A stretch of DNA of 62,200 nucleotides, the filler included, from Kipferlia bialata (Eukaryota), in NCBI GenBank assembly GCA_003568945.1. It is 5 parts of 5 records of this genome, joined end to end, with 100 filler letters (N's around TTAATTAATTAA, not from the genome) between each part and the next. Parts side by side here need not be neighbours in the genome. Positions count along the whole stretch, not along the records: positions 1 to 17,900 come from BDIP01000502.1; 4 more parts are not named here. The stretch is one strand, 5' to 3'. Position numbers and translations under genes: made by a program. Numbering within the stretch: the stretch's first letter is position 1; each line of letters begins with the position of its first letter. This document shows, one piece after another, positions 12,759-61,815 of the stretch. The notes beneath the pieces are model-generated. The model saw only the letters and a program-made list of their open reading frames with translations. It searched no databases and was not told the origin of the DNA.

Positions 12759-13721
12759 CTACGCCTGGTTGACCCTCCACAGCTTGACCACCATGTCGTT
12801 GCCACCAGTGGCTATGACCTAGGGGGGTAAGGTGGGGTATCATAACATCACATCACTATATATATACACATATATACATGTATACATCCACCCACCCTCT
12901 GCTTGGGGTGGCTGTCCACAGCTAGTAGTAATACACACCAGTAAATATATATATATATATACAAACTCATATCTATATAGACTCACCCTCTGCTTGGAGT
13001 GGCTGTGCACCGCTAGGACAAGCATGTGTATATGACAAATGCCAGAATATATACATTCATACATATACATATATGTATATATACATATATATATACATAA
13101 TACTCACCCTCTGCTTGGGGTGGCTGTGCACAGCCAGGGCAGGCACCACAGTCCCACTGCCCTCACAGTGATCAACCCTACACGACATGACACCGTTCCT
13201 GATGCCATTCTGGGTGTGGCCTGGGGGTCAGGGTATGTACATAACAGTATATGAGGCACTTATGGTCTGTCCATACCTCCCTGCACCGAGTATATGCCGG
13301 GCCTTCCGTCCTCTGACCCAGTCAGCACATAGGGGCTCTTGCCACCTAAGATGAGTAAGGAGACATGTAAAGTGTACGTATATATGAACCACATAGGGGC
13401 TCTTGCCTGGGGGGAGTGGGCAGGCGCAACAGTCAATATACGTGTAGTGAATAGTGCACTCTATACCCCTTACCTCCATAGAACCATGAGACGTGATGGG
13501 CAAGGCCTCCACTCTGGTGGCCTCCGCTGAATCTGGGTGAGACGAGAGTCTACAATGAATACAGAGATATTTACTAATAATATATCAACGTAGCACCGTA
13601 CCTAACCACCCTGACTTTCTTGGCCACGGACATGAGAGTCATCTCACTGTCCAGTCCGGCAGTCAGCATGTACTTGCCATTGGCTGAGTACTTGACAGCA
13701 ACCTAGGGTGAGGAAGGATAC

Positions 13722-13759
<38 letters not shown>

Positions 13760-13827
13760 GAGAGGGAGAGAGACAGCATGTACTTGCCATTGGCAGAGTA
13801 CTTGACAGCAACCTAGGGTGAGGAGGG

Positions 13828-13863
<36 letters not shown>

Positions 13864-14141
13864 AGAGAGAGGTGGTTGGCTACACCTGGGGCACTGGCTT
13901 GTGGTCCTTGTCGTCCATCCTCAGCACGTGACGGGGCTCTGAGGTGCGGCTGTCCCATATCCTAGTGTAAGGGAGGGAAGTACACTTCATATCTATCTGC
14001 ATATGTACCTGATGTGTCCATCGAATGACGCCGTGGCGAGTGTTGTGGCATCACTGCTGAAGGACAGACCAGACACAGGCTGGGAGTGGGCCCTGAGGCA
14101 GCTCACCTCATGCCCACCACTCCTCACATCCCAGATACGGG
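12759..14141 (-). CDS. WD40-repeat protein, WDR5/Swd3-like, C-terminal part only
   Basis: RIWDVRSGGHEVSCLRAHSQPVSGLSFSSDATTLATASFDGHIR|IWDSRT, VAVKYSANGKYMLTAGLDSE, final exon VIATGGNDMVVKLWRVNQA*. Confidence 0.8.
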
Positions 14142-14245
14142 CTGGGGGTGAGAGGTATATACATGTGGGTATATACATAGAAGAGGACGGTTAGGGAATG
14201 ACACTCCAGATACACCCAGGAGAGAGAGAAACAAGGTACCCGAGA

Positions 14246-14246
<1 letters not shown>

Positions 14247-14280
<34 letters not shown>

Positions 14281-14283
14281 GAA

Positions 14284-14325
<42 letters not shown>

Positions 14326-14326
14326 G
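14247..14326. repeat. Poly-G tract, probable assembly junction
   Basis: About 80 nt of almost pure G. Gene identity and intron phase differ on the two sides. Confidence 0.7.
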
Positions 14327-14442
14327 CTCCAACTACCCGCTGGTATTGCATTGCAATGTTTCTGAGAGTACAGGCCATAAGAGTGTATTGTATTCGTGAC
14401 ACTAAGGGAATAATGGCAGTCAGTCCACTCTGAAAGGCCATA

Positions 14443-14748
14443 CCTGGTCCAGTGCCTCCACCCTATTACCCTCTATTACATCAGACACATCAAGGCCTAG
14501 GGGTGAGGAAGTATGCCCATTCTCACATAGAGAGAGGCACTCGTTGCCGTGGAAGAAGAACAAGTCAAGGACTATATACCTGACACCGCCCGCCAGTCTA
14601 TAGGATTGGAGGGGGGCCGAAATGAGAACGGAGGCAGTGAGCCTGGTGCTGGCTGGGGGTACGCGCCATCTGGGTCCTGAGAGTTAGTATATACACCAGC
14701 AGCAGAGTATCAAAAACTCTTACCAAATACCGCAATCATTGGAGACAT
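14443..14748 (-). CDS. 5' exons of a DZIP1/Iguana-like (Dzip-like_N) basal-body protein
   Basis: Exons read (MSPMIA)|DPDGAYPQPAPGSLPPFSFRPPSNPIDWRAVS|GLDVSDVIEGNRVEALDQ, matching the F-x-FR...[IV]DWR..S.[LI]DV..V pattern of DZIP1 N-termini. Confidence 0.6.
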
Positions 14749-15282
14749 CAGCAAGAGCCAATATACTCCGCTACACAGTATCCGCACAGAATTCATCAAC
14801 CCACTAATAATTGATCATATGGGACGCATGATCACCTAAACCATGCTCTAGCCCGCTCAACTGGTGTATCTCATTGTAGCAATAATCGACACTCATACCC
14901 TCTCAACATCCAACCGTACCTTCGTGTACTGCATCCACAGCAACACTAGTGGGCCAGACGAATAAACTAGAGTGTATGGTCTCTCTGCTAACTGGTTACC
15001 CTGTCCCAATGGCACTCACTTAAGGAGTACCAGAAGGACATCACAGGATCAGTACCAAAAATTCAGAAATGTGGCGGTGAAACTGAGGGTCCAACCTCTG
15101 ACCGTCATTCTGAGTACGTCTGCGATCGTCTCTCTGCGATCCTCGTATTGTCACTACTCAGAGCATAAGACAAGTAGAGAACCCCTCAAGTGTCCGCGGG
15201 ATATTCAATCATAGTTTCAATCCATTTCGGGAGTCGTGATTCTCACGGTGATCTATTAGGCCTAGTAAGAGACTATTACTAT

Positions 15283-16385
15283 TCATGAGAGAGCCTCCTG
15301 TACCAGGAATCCGATGAACCTACAGGCTGTGTCCGTGTAATTGTACTTGAGTCTGTAGTATACGCCTGGCTGGATGGGCACAGAGGCAGACCCGAGACCA
15401 GTGTTATACCCTGTCCCTAGTATGAGATGTGCAGGGAGAGAGAGAGGGAGAGAGACTCTCAGGGTGAGAGAATATCACAGTAGTACCTGCCCAGCGGGTA
15501 TAGGCCATCGGGAGCCATGCATCTGGGTTCTCCGGCGTGGCAATCTGGACCTCGGCCTGGCAGATGCCTAGTTCAGTCTCAACAGGCCGGACGTACCAGT
15601 TCAGAACGCCAGACCTGTCAAACTCAGTTCTCTCCTCCGAGAGGGAGAGAAGCAGCTGGTACGTGCTAAAGTCGAGAGGGAGGGCGCCTCTCTCGCCCTG
15701 TGGCCCTGTCAGACCTGGTGTGGGTACTACCCACTGGGTAGTAAGGAGGTGTGGAAATTGGAATATTAGCACATACCCGTGTCTCCCTTTGGACCTTGCT
15801 CCCCTGTGACACCGGATACACCTGTGTTGTGAGGCATTTGAAGTAGAAATGCGACGTGTAGGAGGAAGCAGGGATGTCCTGCATCATGTGCTATGGTAGT
15901 ACAGTACTATCCTACTTAGATTCCTTACCGTAAACACTATCAGCTACAAACGGACCAAATACCTGTGTCTCCCTTCGGTCCAGCCGCTCCTGCAGGGCCA
16001 ATCACTCCTGAGGTGAGATTCTCACCTGGATTCTCCCTGAAAATCCATCCTGGTAAGTGGCTATATTGTCACAATGTGAGGCTACACACAATGGCTACAC
16101 GCTACAATCATCACACTCACCTGGGTCTCCCTTAGGTCCAGTCTCTCCAGGTGGACCGACAGTTGTCTGTGCGAGCTGGTACGCTATGAATCCGAGGATA
16201 AGGCACCCAATAGAGAGGAGAACAATGGCAATAGTGGTCGGTGTGACATAGAAGCCTTTCGAGACAGGCTTCTCTAGCCCACGTGGCCCACTGTGTTGGT
16301 GAATTGAGGATCCATGAAACTGCAACTCTACTGCACCCAGTTGAGGGGCTGGAACCACTGACGTGTCTTGTGGGAAGTCATACAT
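15283..16385 (-). CDS. Type II transmembrane collagen-like protein (18 Gly-X-Y triplets plus C-terminal globular domain), 5 exons
   Basis: Exons 16385-16121, 16007-15963, 15821-15777, 15714-15487, ~15416-15283. TM segment IAIVLLSIGCLILGFIAY, then GPP GET GPK GDP GVI GPA GAA GPK GDT GVS GVT GEQ GPK GDT GLT GPQ GER GAL. Confidence 0.85.
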
Positions 16386-16707: not shown

Positions 16708-17752
16708 TTACTCCTCGTCCTCAGCAGCCTCAATATCAACATCACCGGAGGTGGTGATCTCAACCGCCTGGTATTAGAACTGAGAGGAAGAGCTGAAGAC
16801 AAAACGAGATAGTATTATCAACCCGGATCTGGAAGTGACTGAAGAGAAGAATATGTGTATAGACCCATACCATAAATGAGCAGCTGTTGAGGTCGCTACT
16901 TCCGAAGGCATCGGAGGAAAGGTAGGAGAACTCGGTGAAGTCCTCGATGACGATCTGAGGATCAGAGGGAGAGAGATAAAATGGGATGTATATAGAGTAC
17001 ACATCTTCCCCATCTCCTGGTCGGTGCCTGTACATATATTAATGTAATATACAACTATACTATATATATATATATATACTACACACCTCCTGGTCGGTGC
17101 CTGTCTCCACGATGTACCCACACACCGTGTCAGGCATGTCAATGGCAGCCTCGATGTCACCGGCAGTGGTGAGGGTCACCTGGGGGTGAAAAGAGGGGAG
17201 AGATAGAATGTATGGACACAAATATATATATGTATGGATGTAGTGTGTGTGTCCCTATACCTTGTCATCTCCGTCAGTCTTGAGGAGGGCATCGGTGTAG
17301 ACATCTCCTGTGGACACGAGGGTGAGCACAGCAGAGGACTGGGGGTGAGGGGAACTGTGTCTGTCTGATAGAGATAGCCACCATACACAGAGGCCCATAC
17401 CTCCATGGAGATTGCTGTGTCACAGTCCTCTGTGAAGACATTGATCTCACCGAAGAGAGCAAGGTTGGTGTCGATGAGCATGGCAAGACCAGACTGGGGG
17501 TGAGGGAGAGAGTGACAGAGAGAGAGAGAGAGAGAGAGAGAAATATATATATATCAATAATGCTCACCTCCTCCACCTCGTACCCTCCTAGCTGGCCTCC
17601 GGCAGTCATCTGCACCTTGAAGGTCTTTTCATTCTGGGGGTGAGAGGGTGGGATAGAGGTCCAGTATGAGATAATAGTGTGCACTCACCCTGGTGGCGGT
17701 ATCGTCCCCAGCCCCGTCCTCCCCAATGGCCATGAAGACACAGTTGGCACAC
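16708..17752 (-). CDS. Multi-exon acidic hypothetical protein, 3' part (5' end cut by contig edge)
   Basis: In-frame exons with canonical splice sites, e.g. NEKTFKVQMTAGGQLGGYEVEE, VTLTTAGDIEAAIDMP, final AVEITTSGDVDIEAAEDEE*. Confidence 0.6.
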
Positions 17753-17900: not shown

Positions 17901-18000
17901 NNNNNNNNNNNNNNNNNNNNNNNNNNNNNNNNNNNNNNNNNNNNTTAATTAATTAANNNNNNNNNNNNNNNNNNNNNNNNNNNNNNNNNNNNNNNNNNNN
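17901..18000. other. Artificial contig spacer
   Basis: 44 N + TTAATTAATTAA (stops in all six frames) + 44 N. Confidence 0.97.
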
Positions 18001-35899: not shown

Positions 35900-35999
35900 N
35901 NNNNNNNNNNNNNNNNNNNNNNNNNNNNNNNNNNNNNNNNNNNTTAATTAATTAANNNNNNNNNNNNNNNNNNNNNNNNNNNNNNNNNNNNNNNNNNNN
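35900..35999. other. Artificial contig spacer
   Basis: N run + TTAATTAATTAA + N run, 100 nt. Confidence 0.97.
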
Positions 36000-37634: not shown

Positions 37635-40600
37635 CTATCTCCTCAGCCTCCTCCTGGCCCTATGGAGAGTGCGCCGCTGGGAGGAACCTAGAGGTGAGGC
37701 ATCTATAAATATGAGTATGAAAATATTGGAAGTGACTCCGGGAGCTACCTGGAGGTGAGGTATACATATAAACATATAGTATATAGTAGGAGAGTGCGCC
37801 TCTGGGAGGAGACTGAGGGTAAGCAGGGGGAAATACATATATAGTATACACTATAGAGTATGCGGGCTGCTGGAAGGTACCTGAGGGGAAAGGAGGCAGA
37901 AGAGTAGGTGAATGGAAAGAGACGCACATATATGTGATGTACGTATATGCGATATATATATATATATATATATATAGCTGGGAGCAACCTGTGATATCTA
38001 GATAAGATATATCAACGCACATACATTTGAAACTATTGCATAACGTATTGTACTACATATGACTCACCATCACTAGCGGCAGGTGTGGCAGGGGCAGCAG
38101 CTCCAAAGCCTACAGGTGAGAACAAGAAGAAACAGCGAAAGAGAGTACAATATACATTTAGAAGAGGTAATAGAGTATCAATGATATGCAGCAGCTCCAA
38201 AGCCTACAGTGAGAACAGCAGAAGAGTCCTCTATAGTGTGAACACAAAACAGAGAGTATGAGTGGAGGTACATCAAGCGGCGCAAATGGTAAACGCATAC
38301 CTGATGCGGGTGCTGCAGCAGCGGCTCCGAATCCACCTGATAATGAGAGTAATACAGTTAGCATCATACCTCTTCAAGAATTCATCGAAGATGTATATAT
38401 GACGATGTATGTATATCCCTCTGTACCTGTGGCAGCTGCACCGAACCCACCCCCTGGGGCAGCAGCACCAAAGCCACCTGGGAGTGAGTGATGGCCATAG
38501 TATATACACAATACCAATACGTTCTAGATGAAATAGCCATTCACGCTTCCACATGTTCTGGTGATACTAATGCGAGATTACTGCATGTTTACCTGTTGTA
38601 GCAGCGGCACCGAAACCTCCAGCGGCTGGGGCGGCGGCAGCGCCAAAGCCTAACAGTGAGACTGTGAGATTACTCCAAAGACAACATAACTAATCCATGT
38701 AGTATTTGGATATAATGGTAAATGAAATGAATATGAGTACATCTACATCTGCATCCACATATATATATGTATGGATACAAAGCATGTCTACATCTATACA
38801 TAAAGAGTATGAGTACCTGACGCAGGGGCAGCAGCTGCTCCAAACCCTGAGGCAGCAGGGGCGGCTGGGGTTAGGGCAAGTGATATACCGAGAAGACGAA
38901 GCAGAGAACATCATAGTATATATAGAAGTGTATATACCTGCAGTCTTTGCCCCGAAGAACCCTCCGGTAGAAGGGGCAGCGGCAGCAGCTCCAAAGCCTG
39001 AAAAGGTTAGAGGGCAGGTAATCAACACGTCTATCTGATACACTACTGCAAATGCTTTTAGGTTATAGAAACTATTAAATGTGACTACCCATACCTGAAG
39101 CAGCTGGGGCGGCGGTTGCGGCGGCGGCTCCAAACCCAGTGGTGGAAGCACCGAATCCTAGGGATGAGACTATCACTCAGAAGAGAGGCATCAATACAGA
39201 GGAGTATCAAATCACTAACAAGTACTATGTAGTAATACACACACACACACACATACATATATATACTATATACATATCCATGTACCTGTGGATGCAGCGG
39301 GGGCAGCAGCGGCTCCGAAACCTGGCATCAGTACAAATGACCACATACGCAAAAGTGGCGAAGAGGTCCCCAGGAGAATATATTGTATGTGTACATATAT
39401 GTGTCCATTTGAGTGTACCTGTGGAGGCAGGGGCAGCAGCAGCTCCAAAGCCAGTGGCTGCAGGGGCGGCGGCTAGAGATTAGTCGTGGAGCCGAACGCA
39501 TCAAACATATGTATATGGACTAGTGAGAAGTGCACACATATATAATATACCTGCAGCAGCGCCGAAACCTCCTGTGGCGGCTCCAAAGCCTAGGTTGTCA
39601 GTATCAAGATGGAGAAGGATTAGTGATGTGATTGAAGGAATCATTATATCCACACCAGATACTCTTTAATCTACAATAATGTACAACTATGCATCATTGA
39701 CGTCTAACACACATAGACACATACACTACCCCTATATATGCATACATATACACTACCCAGTACCATATAAATGCATACATATACACTACCCAGTACCTGT
39801 GGCAGCAGGTGCAGCGGCAGCGCCGAATCCAGTAGAGGCAGCAGGGGCAGCTAGAGTGAGGGAATACCATTGGCTGAATATATCTGTTGACAATGCACAG
39901 ATTGAAGATAATATGATATGGTGTGAGTATACCTGCTGCTGCTGCGCCGAATCCAGTTGTCCCTGTAGCGGCGGTACCAAAGCCTGATATGTGAGAACAA
40001 TAATCACACTAAATAACAATTTCAAATGTGGATTGACACACAAAGGCTAAAGAAATATGGCGTATAGAACCTGTGGCTGCGGGTGCGGTAGTTGCGGCAG
40101 CCCCGAACCCTGCACCGAATCCAGTCGCTGAGGGTGAGGACCCAAGTGAGTACATATATGCCTACTGTACATGCAGCGATGAACTCTATATGGCATGGAG
40201 GGAGAGAGGAGGACCCACTCTCAAATATATACCACACACACACATATATATATACCTGCTGGTGCAGCGGCAGGGGCGGCAGCAGCAGCTCCGAAGCCTG
40301 GCGTAAGATCTCAGTTGCCACCAAGTAATAGATATAGTAGACTCGTTCTACGAGTGGCTGAAGAGGTGGCAGATACCCACAAGTATAGAGGGCGAGAAAC
40401 CTCAAGAATGTCGTGGAATAGTATATATCCCATACCTGTGGCAGCTGGCTTGGCGTCTGCGGTGGGGGCAGCGAAGGCAAAGCCTCCAGCGGCTGGCTTA
40501 GCGGCTGGGGGTGAGGTTACACATGTGTGAATACAACAGTTACGTATCATATCAGGAGGACTGCGCCAACGAACAACATACATGTGTATAGTATACATGT

Positions 40601-43600
40601 AAGAGTATGTATATGTGTATATATATATGTAGTATGTATATATATATATACCTGCTCCTCCGAACATGCCTGTCCCAGCGGCTGGTGCTGCAGCTGCGGC
40701 ACCAAAACCTAGACATCAGACTCACAAAAAATAGACACCGTTATTTCGGGTAATAATATTATTATAAATACCCATATCAAACTTCTTGCAAAATCAGATC
40801 TGAATCAATATTGATACCTGTGGCTGGGGTGGTGGTAGACGCAGCGGCGCCAAAGCCTGGAATCAACAAAATATCGAAGAACAAATTGACTCTAATACGG
40901 GAAGAATAATATCACCAATATAGTAATACCCGTCCCAGCTACTCCGAACCCATAAAGAGGAAGAGTATACACCTAACCACATTGCCAAAAAGTTGTAAAT
41001 ACCGAACAGTTCAACTCAATACGTGTGCCATTACCTGTTCCAGCTGTAGCTGCTCCGAACCCAGTGGAAGTGGCAGGGGCAGCAGCGGCACCAAAACCTG
41101 GGGTCATACATGGATAAGGAACTCTTATCTAGAGATTTCATGGAAATAGTCACTATCAGAGTGTATAGTACCTGTTGTGGCAGGGGCAGTGGTAGCAGCA
41201 GCACCGAAACCTAGAAGTGAGATATAGTCAAGACCAATATTCATCACTTGAGTGCATTCATACAAGTAACGCTAAGTATCCATGGAATATATGGAATATA
41301 TATATATATATATATATACCATATATTTACATATTAATACCTGTGGCAGCAGGTGCAGTGGTTGAGGCAGAGGCCCCAAACATGCCTATTGTCAGTGATT
41401 GACACAATACCAATGACAATAGAGGGGGAAGAAGCGATAATGACCGAATGCCGACTGATAACGAAGGGGTACTTGGAGAGAACAGCCTTCGTTGATTAGT
41501 ATAATATAAAGTGAATAGGGTATAGTCTAAAGTATACCTGTGGTGGCTGCAGGTGCGGCAGTAGTAGTGGCAGCAGCGCCAAAGCCTAATGTGAGACTTA
41601 AAAAGGGACACAAGACACAGCGGCGTGTAGATAAGCACATAATGACAATATATATATGTATACATATGCATGTAACAGTGTATACCTGTGGCAGGTGTGG
41701 TTGTAGCAGCCGCGGCAGGGGCTGAGAATCCAAAGCCTATATGTAAGGAGTTGAATAGTTGCCACACTACCAAGATTGTATAATAATCTGCTCCAGGCCA
41801 CTATGATCGATAGATGGTTGGTTGTATAGCAATAGTAAAGACTTCTTATACCTCCTGCGGCAGGTGCGGCAGCTGGTGCTGCAGTGGATGAACCAAACAT
41901 GCCTGGGGGTGAGGATAGGCCAAATACAGTATTTGTACACAGTTCAAACCTAGACATATGAGTGTACTACATAGTATCATACCTGTTCCTGCTGGCTTGG
42001 CGTCTGTGCTGGCAGTGGGTGCTGTGAAGCCAAACCCACCAGCGGCAGGGGCCTCGGCAGGCTTGTCAGCTGAGTGTGAGAATAGGAATCAAGACAAAGA
42101 GATGAGATCAGATACCACGACAGCATAGCTAGATACACATTCATCATGATTAAATAGGTGAATAAATATATAGTATATACCTGCAGCGGGTGCCTTGGGA
42201 GCAGAGAAAGAGAAGGCTCCTGCAGCTGGGGCAGCAGCTGGGGTAAGGAAAGAGAAACCAAAGCAACACCACACGTATGTGTACCCATGCAATCCGACAC
42301 GCGATATATAGAGAGATACATACAGTCAATATTCCTATAGGTATATGCTATATGGTATATAGTACCTGCGGCAGGTGCGGCAGCTGGGGTCTCAGTGGCA
42401 GGGGCAGCTGGGGGTGAGTATATATTCATGATAACAGTACAATTAGAGTGTCCCACACGTATAAACTAAAGTACAAAGTATATTTCAATAATGCTTCGTA
42501 CCTGGTGCCGCTCCGAAGCTGAACCCTCCCGCAGCAGGGGCTGGAGCTGCCTCTAGGGGTCAGTATATACATTGAGTGTCACACTTGTACTATCCTGGAA
42601 CCATACAATGTGGGATCCACATACCCTTGTCGGCCTCCTTAGCGGGTGCCTTGGGTGCAGAGAAGGAGAAACCTCCTGCGGCAGGGGCAGAGGGAGCGGC
42701 AGCTAGCATGAGGGAACAATGAAATACAATAGTAATATATGGACAGTTATAATAACACCATATTCAGATACAGCTATGCATAATTGCATGTAATTATATA
42801 CGGGCAGAGGGACCAGCAGCTGGACATTAGCCTATATACAATGAGCGTGAACAGCACTATATCACATAATGTGTACCTCCGAACATTGGCTTCTCGGCTG
42901 GGGTCTCTGCTGGCTTGGTGGCAGCTGAAGTGAGAAATGAATATATATACACACACACATATATATATATATATATGCACCATGATACCGAACGTGTGTA
43001 TCCGATGGGAATGATAAGAAAGATGAGAGAAGATATAGAGAAATACATGCTACTAGCGAATACGTACCTGCACCGAACATGCCAGTGGAGGCAGGGGCGG
43101 CATCGGCTGCTGGGGTGAGAACTAAGGTACATCAATAAATATGAGATATAATAATAGACCAACCCATTGCAATGAATACATAGTAATATGTGCAAATACC
43201 GTTACCCTTGTCTCCCTCCTTGGCGGGTGCCTTGGGGGCAGAGAAGGAGAAGCCTCCAAGGGCAGGGGCAGCTGGGGCAGCAGCTAGGTATGAGTGTGTA
43301 TCAATACTGAACATGTGACAGTGTTCACATATATATATCTTAGTAGATATACCCCTACCTGTCTCAGCCTTTGCTGCCTCAGTCATAGTGTGTAATAATA
43401 TAGATACACAAATGAAGAGTACTGTCTCAATATATATAGAGACCAATACCTGTCTCAGCCTTTGGTGCCTCAGCTGGGGTCTCAGTCTCAGCCTTCTTGG
43501 GGGCACTGAAGCTGGGAGGGTCAGATTGACTAAGAAACACTCTGTTCACAAACTGTCATACTCTATACCCCATATCCCAATGCGGCATTGTAGCTACACT

Positions 43601-53862: not shown

Positions 53863-53962
53863 NNNNNNNNNNNNNNNNNNNNNNNNNNNNNNNNNNNNNN
53901 NNNNNNTTAATTAATTAANNNNNNNNNNNNNNNNNNNNNNNNNNNNNNNNNNNNNNNNNNNN
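53863..53962. other. Artificial contig spacer
   Basis: N run + TTAATTAATTAA + N run, 100 nt. Confidence 0.97.
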
Positions 53963-56960: not shown

Positions 56961-59900
56961 CTATAGTTCTCCAGGTTCCTCAGCGACAACATGGAAGTCA
57001 CACTCAATCTCACCCTCAAAGCCTAAGGAAGAGTCGGATGCGTCTGAGGCTTCCTGAGTAGCCAGCAGAGGGACATCGGTCACCGGAGTAGCGATCATAA
57101 GCGGGGAAGTGATAACGGGGCTGGTAGGTATGAGGGTGATCACAGGCTGTTACTCCTGACTGGGCACTGGGGAGATGAAGACACCATCCTCCAGATCACC
57201 CTTAGCACCCTTAGTGCAGTCATCCTGCTGCTCAGACTCCTTGATGGCACTCAAGCAACACCACATGCCTCCACCCACCACAACCAGCAGACACACAGAC
57301 ACAATGAGTACAGGGACCCAGGGGAAGGTTGAAGCAAGGGTGACGGCCTCAGTGAGGATAGTGACACCCCCCACCGCTACAGTCATCGTGTAGTCCCCCT
57401 CATCGCCAGCAGTGCCAGACACACTGTACTCACCATATCCCTCCCACACAGCTACTACTGAAGAACCAGCAAATGCCACTGTAGGAGAGATGTCACTCTG
57501 AATGACAGTGCCTCCGATGTCCCTCAAGGTAAGACTGGCAGAGTACTCCTCCTTTGCTGTGGATGGAAGACCAGTGAGAGTTGAGTGCACTCCTGACACA
57601 CCAACACTCGTAGAGTCGATAGTCACAAACACAGGGGCGACATGTACTGACGCCCTATGCACGGGTACTCTTCCCAGTGTCGTGGAGTATGTGTAGACCC
57701 CCTCCTGGGTGGGGGTCTGGGTGTAGGAGAAGGAATCACCTGAATCGAGATCGTGTGTCCCAACGACGGTTCCATCAGCACGAGTGATAGAGAGGGACAC
57801 TACCTCACCCCCCATCTCCTCGTTACAGTCATTCCTGGGGGGCATGCTAAAGGTGACATTGTCACCAAGAACAGCAGTAGTGGGGAGAGAGACGACTGTG
57901 TTGGTAGTGTTGAGCACGGAGGCGAGGGTGGCTGTGCCCGTGGCTAGGGTCTCTGTGTCAATAAGAAGGGTAAGAGTGTGTGACCCAGGGGTAGNTGGCT
58001 AGGGTCTCTGTGTCAATAAGAAGGGTAAGAGTGTGTGACCCAGGGGTAGAGGGAGCAGCCACGTCAAGAGTGTACGAGGTGGTGGACGGGACCCAGGCCA
58101 CGGCCACATCTGTGTTGTCCTCCCACCTGGCACTGAGAGCAGATACCATGTTGGTGGTGTGGGTGACACCCCCCTTCACAAGGGAGAACGGTACAGTCTC
58201 GGTCTGGCATGTCCTGTCAACAGAGATATCGAGAGAGGTGGTGATACCATATGTGGTAGCCACACTCTCTGAGAGTATCTGGACAGAACTGACCGATACA
58301 GTGACTGTCTCAGCAGATGGGGATATGCCCTCAGTCCCAGTGTAGGTGTAGTGGTTGGATGCAGGTACCCAGGTAAGGGTGACAGGAGACCCACCCCAGG
58401 ACATGGAGGGAGAGACGTCAGATGTGATGACTGAACCAAAGATGTCCATCAACACAAGGATGGCGGTGTAGGCCTCCTCGGTGGAAGATGGGAGGCCTGT
58501 GAGAGTAGAGTGCACAGCTGATACTCCCACTTGGGCGGAATCAACAGCTACAAAGACTGGCGCCACGTCGATGGTATCGGTGTGGAGTGTCTGACCATCC
58601 ACTGACGCAGAGAAGGTGTACACACCCTCCTCCGCGAGAGATGTACTCAGTGTGTATGAGTCTGTATGTGTCAGACTGAGGACAGACCCCACCTGGGCCC
58701 CGTCTGCGTCAGTAACTGTGAGTGCCACAGTCTGTGCCATGGAGTTGAGGCAGTAGTCGACGGGGGGCATGGAGACAGAGAAGGTGGCACCAGTCACAGC
58801 GGTGGGGGGGAGGGTGAGGATGGTGCTGGCAGGGCTGGCCTCTGATGCCAGAGTCACGGAGTCAGAAGATAACACCTCTCCATCGAGGTAGAGGGTGAGG
58901 GTGTGGGGGCCAGCAGTGGAGGGACCGGTCACATCTATCGTGTAGGATGTGGTGGCAGGCACAAAGGTCACAGCAATATCGACAGCATCCTCCCAGGAGG
59001 CAGTCAGGTAGGCAGAGGCATCGGTGGTGAAGAGAGACCCATCCCTCTGACATGTGAATGCCACAGTCTCAGTCTGGCACATGCCACTGATCGAGAGGGA
59101 GAGGGACGTGTCAATGTCGTACCTGAGTGTGAGGAAGTGCTACTACACGATTGACAGATATTTGAGATACAATAGGTGAGACGTACATGGTGGATACAGT
59201 GTCGGACACAATGATAGTCCCAGACACGGATACTGTGACAGAGTAGGACTCAGGGGTGCTCCCAGAGGTGTCGCTATATGTGTAGAGGTGGCTGGTGGGG
59301 TTCCAGACAAGAGAAGGTGCAGTTGCACCCCAAGCCATCGTGGGAGAGAGGTCAGACGTGATGACGTTGTTGCTGACATCACGCAGCACAAGAGTTGCTG
59401 TATAGGCCTCATCCGGCTGGGTGGGGATGCCTCTCAGAGTGGAGTGCACGGCAGAGACAGCGACAGACTCAGACGCCACTATGACAAGGACAGGTGCAAT
59501 CTCCACAGTCATGCTGTCGATGTCAACCCCACCAACTGACCCCGTGAAGGTGTACACTCCCTCAGCTGGGAAGCTGTAGTACATACCATACAGGTCGGCC
59601 TGGTATGTCAGGCTCTCGTCCGGTGCACAGGTCACACCGTCAGAGGCACACACGGAGAGCACCACAGTGGTATCCTCAATCAGGGTGCCACAGTCGTCAT
59701 ATGGAGACATCTCCCACTCCACCTCCTGATCGATGAGGGCCTGAGGCACGAGATACTCGCACACTGTGTTGGTGGAGTTCACCACCCGCCCCACTGTCTG
59801 TGTGTCTGTGGCCAGGGTGGTCGTGTCGAGTGCAAGAGTGAGGGTGAGGTCACCCACAGCGTCAGGGACCACCACAGCTATCGTGTAGCTGGTTGAGGCC

Positions 59901-60410
59901 TCGACCCAGGTCACCGTGTTGGTATCGGTGGTCTGCATTGTCCCAGGTGGCAGAGAGGGACGCACTCTTGTCCTCTGTGCATAGAGCATCGTCTGCCAGG
60001 AGGGTGAAGGTGGCAGTCTCAGTGACACAGGTGGAGACAGAGGTCAGAGGAGAGAGGTCGGTCACAGTGTACACGGGAAGGCGGATGATAAGATGAATGG
60101 TGGCTCCTTCCCCGATGAGGTAGCTACTCACCGTTCTGCTGTCCTCTAGCTGTTTCCCTCCAAAGACCAATCTCTGGTCCGCTGGTTCAATACCTACTAT
60201 GAGAAGAGAAGATTGTGACATGTCATATAATATGAGAGGGTGAAATGAGGGTAGCTGCTACACCCACTCACCACTGGCTGTATAGACCTGGGCCTTGACG
60301 GATGCTATGGTGTCAGACTCATCCACAGTGAGGTTGTACTTGATGCCTGTGAGGGTCTGGACACTGATACCAATCGTAGACACCTTAGGAGACATGGAGT
60401 CTGTTGTGGC
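56961..60410 (-). pseudogene. Ubiquitin-like domain + three ~290-aa Thr/Val-rich beta-sandwich-like repeats + TM + tail. Frameshift and internal TAA as assembled; 5' exon missing.
   Basis: ISVQTLTGIKYNLTVDESDTIASVKAQV..|GIEPADQRLVFGGKQLEDSRTVSSY.I..GATIHLIIRL. Repeats begin C[VQ]TET. Intron 59185-59123. TM WVPVLIVSVCLLVVVGGGMWCC. Frame break at ~59925-59931, TAA at 57150-57152. Confidence 0.7.
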
Positions 60411-60557: not shown

Positions 60558-60657
60558 NNNNNNNNNNNNNNNNNNNNNNNNNNNNNNNNNNNNNNNNNNN
60601 NTTAATTAATTAANNNNNNNNNNNNNNNNNNNNNNNNNNNNNNNNNNNNNNNNNNNN
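60558..60657. other. Artificial contig spacer
   Basis: N run + TTAATTAATTAA + N run, 100 nt. Confidence 0.97.
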
Positions 60658-60852
60658 AAAAAAAAAAAAAAAAAAGAAGGGGGGGGGGGGGGGGGTTATG
60701 GTCTCTACCAACGCTAGGAGTATAGAGAATGCCCTGTGAGCATCCTGTGCCACATTGAGGAATGACACCAGTACGCATCATATAGTATATAGCACAAATA
60801 GCAAGAATTGTAATTGACATTATATACATACAATATCATGTATTATACACAC

Positions 60853-61522
60853 CTGTCTCTCTTCCTCCTGCTCCAGGTCCTGTGCCACATTGAGGAATGA
60901 GAAGCTGCTGAGAGGGGGGCCTGTCCAGCTGAGCTTGCCCCTGGTCCTGCGCAGAAGACCTAAGGTGAGGAGAGATAGAAAAATACAAAGCAGAGAGGAG
61001 ACAGTACAATGTGTATATATGATATATATGAATACTACACTCACCGATTGCCTCGAGTGGGTTGGTCACATCGTAGATACGCCTCTTGGGTATGGCCAGG
61101 AAGTCCGTCACCTCCTTGACAGTCACACTGTCTGCCCCACTCTTGGCAGCTGCGTTGGAGAAACAGGCCAGCAGCCCCCTGGTCAGCTCCCGCAGCTTGC
61201 TCCCAGCGGCATCTGCCTTGGGGGCACCACTCTTGCGCCCCCCCTTGGGTGTGGACATGGGGGTAGCCTTGGCAGAGTACCGGGGTGTGCTCTGGCTGCT
61301 CCTGGTGGCTGACACAGGGGCAGTGGGGGGTCGGGAGGATATAGAGGCCAGGGCAACTGGCTCAGTCTTCACAACCACCCCATGCTGGCCCACAGCCGCA
61401 ACAACTGCACCCTCATCTAACACTGGCGGCCTCTTGGCCTCAGGTTGCAGGGGAGGCGTGTCCACAGGGTCTACAAGGCGAGAATCCACGGCTTCTTGGT
61501 TCGAAGAGTGTGGTCTGGACAT
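60853..61522 (-). CDS. E2F/DP-family winged-helix transcription factor, 3' end cut by contig edge
   Basis: SKLRELTRGLL..VTVKEVTDFLAIPKRRIYDVTNPLEAI|GLLRRTRGKLSWTG, the E2F RRIYD signature. Confidence 0.88.
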
Positions 61523-61815
61523 ATCAAGGTCGAATCCGGCTACAAAGCCCGTTCCAGAGTACTATATGGTCTGTCGAAGCACTCTGTGCTCTACCCAACA
61601 CCAGTGAGGTTGCGTAGGTACCGAACTGTGTCGAGGAAGATCAACTCTGGAGTTCCAAAGTTTCCAGCTACAAAGGGTGTAGTAGTTTTTGGTAACGATT
61701 GCACCCTTTTGTCAAACGTGTTTTTGCATGAACTCCCGAGAGGCTGTGTCCTGACTGCTTCACTCATTCGACCCCCAAACACCCCTTACTCCACTCTTCC
61801 TGCACTCCATACGTG

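Follow-up and report, generated by a model that had tools for sequence, protein, structure and literature searches.

Of the major eukaryotic groups surveyed, only Haptista was reported to have no detected collagen domain, and choanoflagellates are described as having a collagen that is anchored in the membrane and carries a lectin head (bioRxiv 2021.10.08.463732); fusion is reported to have joined short collagens to a C1q-like head on more than one occasion (PMC7058181). Because such proteins are in print, the layout of a membrane helix followed by collagen is regarded as already known. Here, a collagen-like gene of the metamonad Kipferlia bialata, a free-living anaerobic flagellate, was analysed in a stretch of 62,200 nucleotides (assembly GCA_003568945.1; the window), in which it occupies positions 15283..16385 on the minus strand. 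The available text of the K. bialata genome paper has 0 occurrences of the word collagen (PMC5874029), and the family is not described in the accessible literature on metamonad collagen, where the main text of the preprint cited above does not name Kipferlia and its figures or supplements may list these proteins. An orphan head family, its exchange between stalks, and phase-1 exons of 45 nt in a metamonad appear to be undescribed in the literature searched. On balance, we favour the explanation that the 238-aa product is a homotrimeric surface adhesin or recognition protein belonging to a family found only in K. bialata, with fold and trimer predicted by modelling, and with topology, location, ligand and history that we infer.

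Structure of the collagen-like gene

The gene was confirmed as real and as drawn, with five exons joined by predicted splicing. Exon 1 (16121..16385, 265 nt) carries the start codon, the N-tail, the membrane helix and the first four Gly-X-Y triplets, and its 3′ end encodes GPKGDP followed by the first base of a split Gly codon. Exon 2 (15963..16007) and exon 3 (15777..15821), identical at 27 of 45 nt, are each 45 nt long, encode five triplets and end in GPKGDT, exactly as had been read from the sequence alone. Exon 4 (15487..15714, 228 nt) encodes the last four triplets and then, from 15679, head residues 131-194, and exon 5 (15283..15416, 134 nt) encodes head residues 195-238 and the stop codon. 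The four introns between them (intron 1, 16008..16120, 113 nt; intron 2, 15822..15962, 141 nt; intron 3, 15715..15776, 62 nt; intron 4, 15417..15486, 70 nt; all on the minus strand, like the exons) have GT..AG ends in 4/4 cases, and the claim that all are phase 1 and split a Gly codon held at each, in a junction context of CAG/G or CGG/G throughout; the Gly codon split by intron 4 lies in the non-collagen head. Intron 1 has an in-frame alternative acceptor at 16050. Intron 4 contains a consensus-like branch and acceptor motif ending in GAG at 15458, 29 nt from the donor, the use of which would end the frame early.

The 238-aa model is identical at all residues to the database protein P0001, labelled Kipferlia bialata KIPB_002841, which was the sole protein returned by a search with exon 4 alone. 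Since the published K. bialata gene models are described as coming from AUGUSTUS with transcript hints (PMC5874029), P0001 was treated as an independent prediction and not as cDNA. A six-frame scan of the window found five runs of at least four Gly-X-Y triplets, four of which are the exons of this gene. A head profile built from six paralogues, with P0001 excluded, mapped consecutively onto exon 4 (profile positions 2-67, E 1e-19) and exon 5 (70-108, E 3e-13), such that intron 4 is supported by ordered head-profile matches and introns 1-3 by the continuous Gly register. The gene stands alone, as the gene upstream of it has its stop at 16708 and the RNA contig of that upstream gene reaches 16677, which leaves 291 nt to the start codon.

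Protein layout, head family and predicted trimer

The product has a hydrophobic peak at residues 50-68, 18 unbroken Gly-X-Y triplets at residues 77-130 (4, 5, 5 and 4 triplets from exons 1-4) and a 108-aa head at residues 131-238. The single membrane helix and the 18 uninterrupted triplets of the sequence-only reading were borne out by hydropathy and by a Pfam Collagen match (PF01391; E 9.5e-10, 38.5 bits against a cut-off of 27.2), and a Pfam scan at E up to 10 found no other domain in the product. The same reading had described a beta-rich C-terminal domain of ~95 aa; the predicted model is all-beta, and the length is corrected to 108 aa. The membrane helix (16176..16238, minus strand; residues ~50-70) has three Lys or Arg residues on its N side and one on the other, an excess from which a type II topology is predicted, in keeping with the layout read earlier from the sequence.

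At the Y position of 103 family triplets, Pro is found in 3.9%, Thr in 20% and Asp in 20%, and viral collagens have Pro at Y in 3.6% of 3994 triplets. Pro at Y occurs in 2 of the 18 triplets of the collagen-like protein, which falls short of the frequent Y-Pro of hydroxyproline-stabilised collagen. Reported values are 33-42% Pro at Y for human collagens and 32% Thr at Y for bacteria (PMC8968730), bacterial and phage collagens are likewise described as Pro-poor at Y (PMC8968730, PMC3368898), and low Pro is also reported as common to other protist collagens (bioRxiv 2021.10.08.463732). The composition of the stalk is prokaryotic or viral-like and not animal, and a hydroxyproline-free triple helix would suit a low-oxygen organism.

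When the head was searched exhaustively by phmmer in 1.84 billion representatives, six proteins matched (the protein itself, one repeat protein, and four paralogues with E 1e-26 to 4e-6). Two further members came from a profile search, which brings the family to at least seven proteins including P0001, with a source label of Kipferlia bialata for 7/7; among the paralogues are KIPB_004781, KIPB_007715, KIPB_010098, KIPB_011580 and KIPB_012184. The repeat-rich P0006 (E 9e-5) was dropped as a head relative, as the head profile does not recover it. Head identity is 34-57% among the six collagen-bearing members and 22-30% for P0008. The stalks of those six contain 18, 10, at least 14, 21, 23 (in three runs) and 17 triplets, so the paralogues of different stalk length that had been anticipated were found (10 to 23 triplets in five paralogues). 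P0008 (KIPB_006166, partial) carries the head on a non-collagen repeat of ~24 residues with zero collagen triplets, so the head is a movable tip. That repeat is present in approximately ten copies of 21-38 residues with a Y-V-x-x-P-x-x-W core and no Pfam match, and may be an undescribed trimeric fibre stalk.

A membrane helix is present in four of the seven members, with 3, 3, 3 and 4 Lys or Arg residues before it and 1, 1, 0 and 1 after it, and this position of the basic residues on the N side points to a C-terminus outside the cell. Cys170 and Cys226 are both present in six of the seven heads and both absent from P0005, a co-occurrence that fits a putative extracellular disulfide. The least conserved head segments are the loops at 161-168, 194-203 and 222-225 (0.44, 0.50 and 0.33, against 0.57-0.83). 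In a tree of the seven heads, 0/4 inner branches were supported.

At the level of sequence comparison, no credible relative of the head was found outside K. bialata. None was found by word search or among PDB sequences; the comparison with PHROGs gave only two weak rows (E 0.016 and 0.047), phage records gave four rows at E 0.9 or worse, and NCBIfam and plasmids (the latter with P0005) gave no relative. The best head match in 80 metagenome loci had E 0.7, and there was none at E 1 in 80 viral loci, all of these loci having been recruited through likeness to the collagen stalk. One locus from an archaeal genome, L081, was rejected as a head relative, the match lying opposite a long open reading frame (ORF) on the other strand. 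Pfam found no C1q, TNF or BclA_C match at E up to 1 in any of the seven family proteins, and no SRCR, C-type lectin or ConA-like domain in them. Neither C1q nor BclA_C was carried by two sets of stalk-adjacent domains (0/50 and 0/25, submitted from 56 and 30 candidates) or by any of 301 genomes, in which the controls were equally silent.

The head was modelled as a compact, all-beta jelly roll (pLDDT mostly 70-90), so the predicted fold is the jelly-roll beta-sandwich of C1q/TNF heads. In a Foldseek search of PDB, chains of C1q or TNF made up 32 of 40 rows among the matches listed (E 2.5e-3 to 6.4e-3), and a structural aligner did not single out C1q/TNF above other jelly rolls; of the fold search that the earlier reading had called for, the jelly roll stands, with a leaning to C1q/TNF in Foldseek only. 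Viral Foldseek rows were set aside as fold evidence, being mostly long, stalk-driven alignments with rmsd over 20, and a single-sequence AlphaFold model of the protein was too weak to use (pLDDT 49). Atlas feature scores of 0.80-0.83 to BclA_C and collagen clusters, with none for P0007, serve as leads only. A homotrimer prediction for residues 110-238, the assembly suggested from the sequence, scored 0.90, compared with 0.02 for the best of three controls; at least 97% of contacts are shared between runs, pLDDT is at least 85, and the predicted contacts include head-to-head pairs 188-231, 189-157 and 190-159 and stalk contacts at 110-132. The trimer mark, calibrated on two copies, was reached by 21/30 solved pairs and 0/23 single chains from microbes, and by 17/29 solved pairs and 0/30 single chains from eukaryotes.

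Proposed function and history of the stalk

As an adhesin or recognition protein, each chain would be anchored by the membrane helix with its N-terminus inside, and three heads would associate and set the register of a triple helix of ~15 nm (predicted length; 9-20 nm across the family), held by Pro at X together with Thr, Lys, Asp and Gln and not by hydroxyproline. The stalk would lift the head off the membrane, the variable loops would serve to bind a substrate or the surface of bacteria, and the paralogues would vary stalk length and loops. K. bialata is reported to feed while its posterior end is attached to surfaces, and its flagellar vane to bear tape-like hairs (PMC11145212), which gives two candidate locations for the protein; by analogy only, some bacterial TNF-like trimers are reported as lectins whose sites lie between protomers (PMC12914763).

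The 45-nt exons had been called animal-style, a label that was not upheld: fibrillar collagen exons of 54 or 45 bp are reported to open with an intact Gly codon (PMC2852846), whereas the exons here are phase 1, and with Pro at ~4% of Y positions the stalk is prokaryote-like. Split Gly codons at exon joints have been cited as a feature of collagen IV (PMC5395295). They occur at all four introns, yet one of these lies outside the collagen, and the feature is not diagnostic; no COLFI or C4 (NC1) domain was found by Pfam, and the stalk has 18 triplets compared with over 100 in collagen IV. Exons of 53-133 nt in the neighbouring genes indicate that short exons are ordinary in this DNA. A G/G splice context is likewise ordinary and in phase 1 gives Gly, and the split Gly codons can be attributed to this usual context, as it is seen also at intron 4 outside the stalk. 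The positions of the introns are less ordinary, in that the three stalk introns sit exactly on three GPKGD[PT]-G glycines (approximately 1 in 680 if randomly placed), and the joint likeness of the three exon ends has p 1e-4 by triplet shuffling. The stalk of this gene probably lengthened as a phase-1 exon of 45 nt was duplicated in tandem, a course convergent with that of animal collagen genes.

Several observations weigh against the favoured explanation, in whole or in part. No RNA contigs over the gene were obtained from two small-share runs (X1, X2), a result that says nothing on expression; the runs gave three contigs with spliced joints, in two neighbouring genes (16766-16870 and 14495-14579). 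With an acceptor matrix derived from 10 neighbouring introns, the modelled acceptors of introns 1-4 ranked third, third, first and second, and so were best in 1/4. A membrane helix is missing from P0004 (maximum hydropathy 0.83), the models of P0003 and P0008 are incomplete, and the family heads have no known sugar-binding motif, ligand and location being surmised. Among eukaryotic pairs for which no older solved relative exists, the trimer mark was reached by only one of seven, the pass may partly be memory of solved collagen-plus-head trimers, and conservation at the predicted interface residues does not exceed that of the remaining residues (0.57 against 0.65). For the stalk, the likeness of exon 2 to exon 3 alone (27/45 nt) is borderline (p 0.051), and a 15-residue GPKGD[TP]G spacing occurs in 18/127 intervals, at 11/80 loci, of intronless viral collagens, the 80 loci having been picked for likeness to the K. 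bialata protein; P0002 has a 15-residue DTG spacing likewise. As the same spacing occurs without introns, the repeat may predate them. Of the earlier proposal that the stalk grew by exon duplication, duplication of the 45-nt exon is retained as probable, qualified by the borderline exon 2 and 3 likeness and the viral spacing.

The viral spacing leads to a possible but less probable history, in which a collagen-plus-head gene free of introns, repeat included, was acquired from a phage, a giant virus or a bacterium, and introns were inserted later at G/G. This is compatible with an adhesin or recognition function, and is opposed by the failure of the searches to find a sequence relative of the head outside K. 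bialata, by the five Gly sites with CAG/G of which two carry introns, the third intron lying at CGG/G in repeat register, and by the low Pro also typical of other protist collagens (bioRxiv 2021.10.08.463732). Deep homology, in which the protein would be a true C1q/TNF collagen akin to ectodysplasin or C1q, early-eukaryotic or acquired from animals together with the exon pattern, draws on the C1q or TNF identity of 32 of the 40 listed Foldseek rows and on a domain order shared with the animal proteins. The last head strand, F-x-G-[FY]-[LM], also resembles a C1q motif. Deep homology is nonetheless improbable; protist collagens as such are known, and the gene is no evidence for an animal link. 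It is also doubtful, though less so, that a metamonad independently evolved an ectodysplasin/C1q-like repertoire, with a minimal true C1q/TNF head, a stalk tuned by 45-nt exon duplication and a head swapped onto a non-collagen stalk, recognising prey or substrate; if true, this would be a second, separate origin of collagen by exon duplication.

A purely structural role, in which trimers build a surface coat or the flagellar-vane hairs and the head only trimerises or packs laterally, would be in keeping with C-terminal trimerisation domains capping prokaryotic collagens (PMC3368898), with the head also capping a non-collagen stalk in P0008, and with a species-specific family for a species-specific structure. 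We consider it unlikely, given predicted stalks of just 9-20 nm and loops and stalk lengths whose variation would fit recognition better than a lattice. It is very improbable that the gene is silent, decaying or otherwise spliced, as by use of the acceptor at 16050, where 14 added residues would interrupt the Gly-X-Y helix. The acceptors do depart from the strong consensus of the neighbours, and the P0001 branch (1.22) is among the longer of the collagen-bearing heads (others 0.40-1.20, in an unresolved tree); against this, the frame is intact over five exons, head residues and both cysteines are conserved, the acceptor at 16008 outscores its competitor at 16050 in the acceptor matrix, and the independent database model is identical.

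The families of surface proteins found in parasitic relatives of free-living fornicates are reported to be absent from the free-living forms (PMC5874029). Surface display in the latter is little known, and the head family is a candidate for contact with substrate or prey. The head is small, has no detectable relatives and should be easy to express and solve, and the gene offers a non-animal test of collagen growth by duplication of exons of 9n nt; it also exemplifies a eukaryotic triple helix, in a low-oxygen cell, that is likely to be free of hydroxyproline.

Rest of the window and comparison with known systems

The spacers of the window (17901-18000, 35900-35999, 53863-53962 and 60558-60657) each consist of 44 N, 12 bases and 44 N; the first holds a stop-in-all-frames linker, and genes across spacers are not genuine neighbours. 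The upstream gene (16708-17752, minus strand) encodes an acidic product of at least 179 aa with no Pfam match in the one exon scanned; 6/6 modelled introns are phase 0, and one joint is RNA-confirmed in both runs. Downstream, a WD40 gene (12780-14850, minus strand) has WDR5-like leads and one RNA-confirmed joint, and some of its exon ends are apparently duplicated within introns near 13690-13810 and 12890-13110. Long, intron-poor, Thr/Ser/Val-rich frames at 57150-60043 (minus strand), with repeats of an Ig-like unit (weak matches to Filamin and CARDB) and a C-terminal hydrophobic helix, are probably a large surface protein. An E2F/DP winged-helix domain (Pfam E 1.1e-7) is encoded at 60836-61561 (minus strand), and numerous small exons with FG-type, Ala/Thr/Pro-rich repeats at 38690-42465 resemble an FG nucleoporin.

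Among known systems, class A scavenger receptors and nematode cuticle collagens share a layout of type II helix, short collagen and C-terminal region, and ectodysplasin is also type II anchored. The K. bialata protein differs from the former two in having no SRCR, lectin or cuticle-collagen Pfam domain and no coiled-coil spacer. Like ectodysplasin A, C1q, adiponectin, collagens VIII and X and Cthrc1, in which a collagen stalk is followed by a trimeric jelly-roll head (PMC7058181), it would carry such a head at the end of its stalk; unlike theirs, the head is smaller by ~25-35 residues, gives no detectable sequence match to them and is not set apart as C1q/TNF by structure, the stalk is without Y-Pro, and there is no sign of shedding or of a receptor. 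Fibrillar collagen genes similarly place a triple helix in exons of 9n nt, apparently duplicated, but are phase 0 with COLFI and hundreds of triplets, whereas the K. bialata gene is phase 1 with no COLFI and 18 triplets. BclA, Scl1/2, Lcl, prophage EPclA and giant-virus collagens are alike in their hydroxyproline-free, GPK/GDT/GPQ-rich triplets and in the C-terminal trimerising head and surface display that are predicted for the K. bialata protein, and for NCBIfam Lcl/Scl models the match is confined to the stalk and falls far short of the cut-offs; in contrast to these, the K. bialata gene is eukaryotic and intron-bearing, with a type II anchor and a head unmatched by sequence. The choanoflagellate collagenous lectin ChCL, proposed to meet bacteria, is likewise a protist protein with an N-terminal membrane helix, ~50 aa of collagen and a C-terminal beta-rich domain, and contains an additional region of ~700 aa and a ConA-like head of ~200 aa (bioRxiv 2021.10.08.463732), whereas the K. 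bialata protein is 238 aa long, ends in an orphan 108-aa head and comes from a lineage far from animals.
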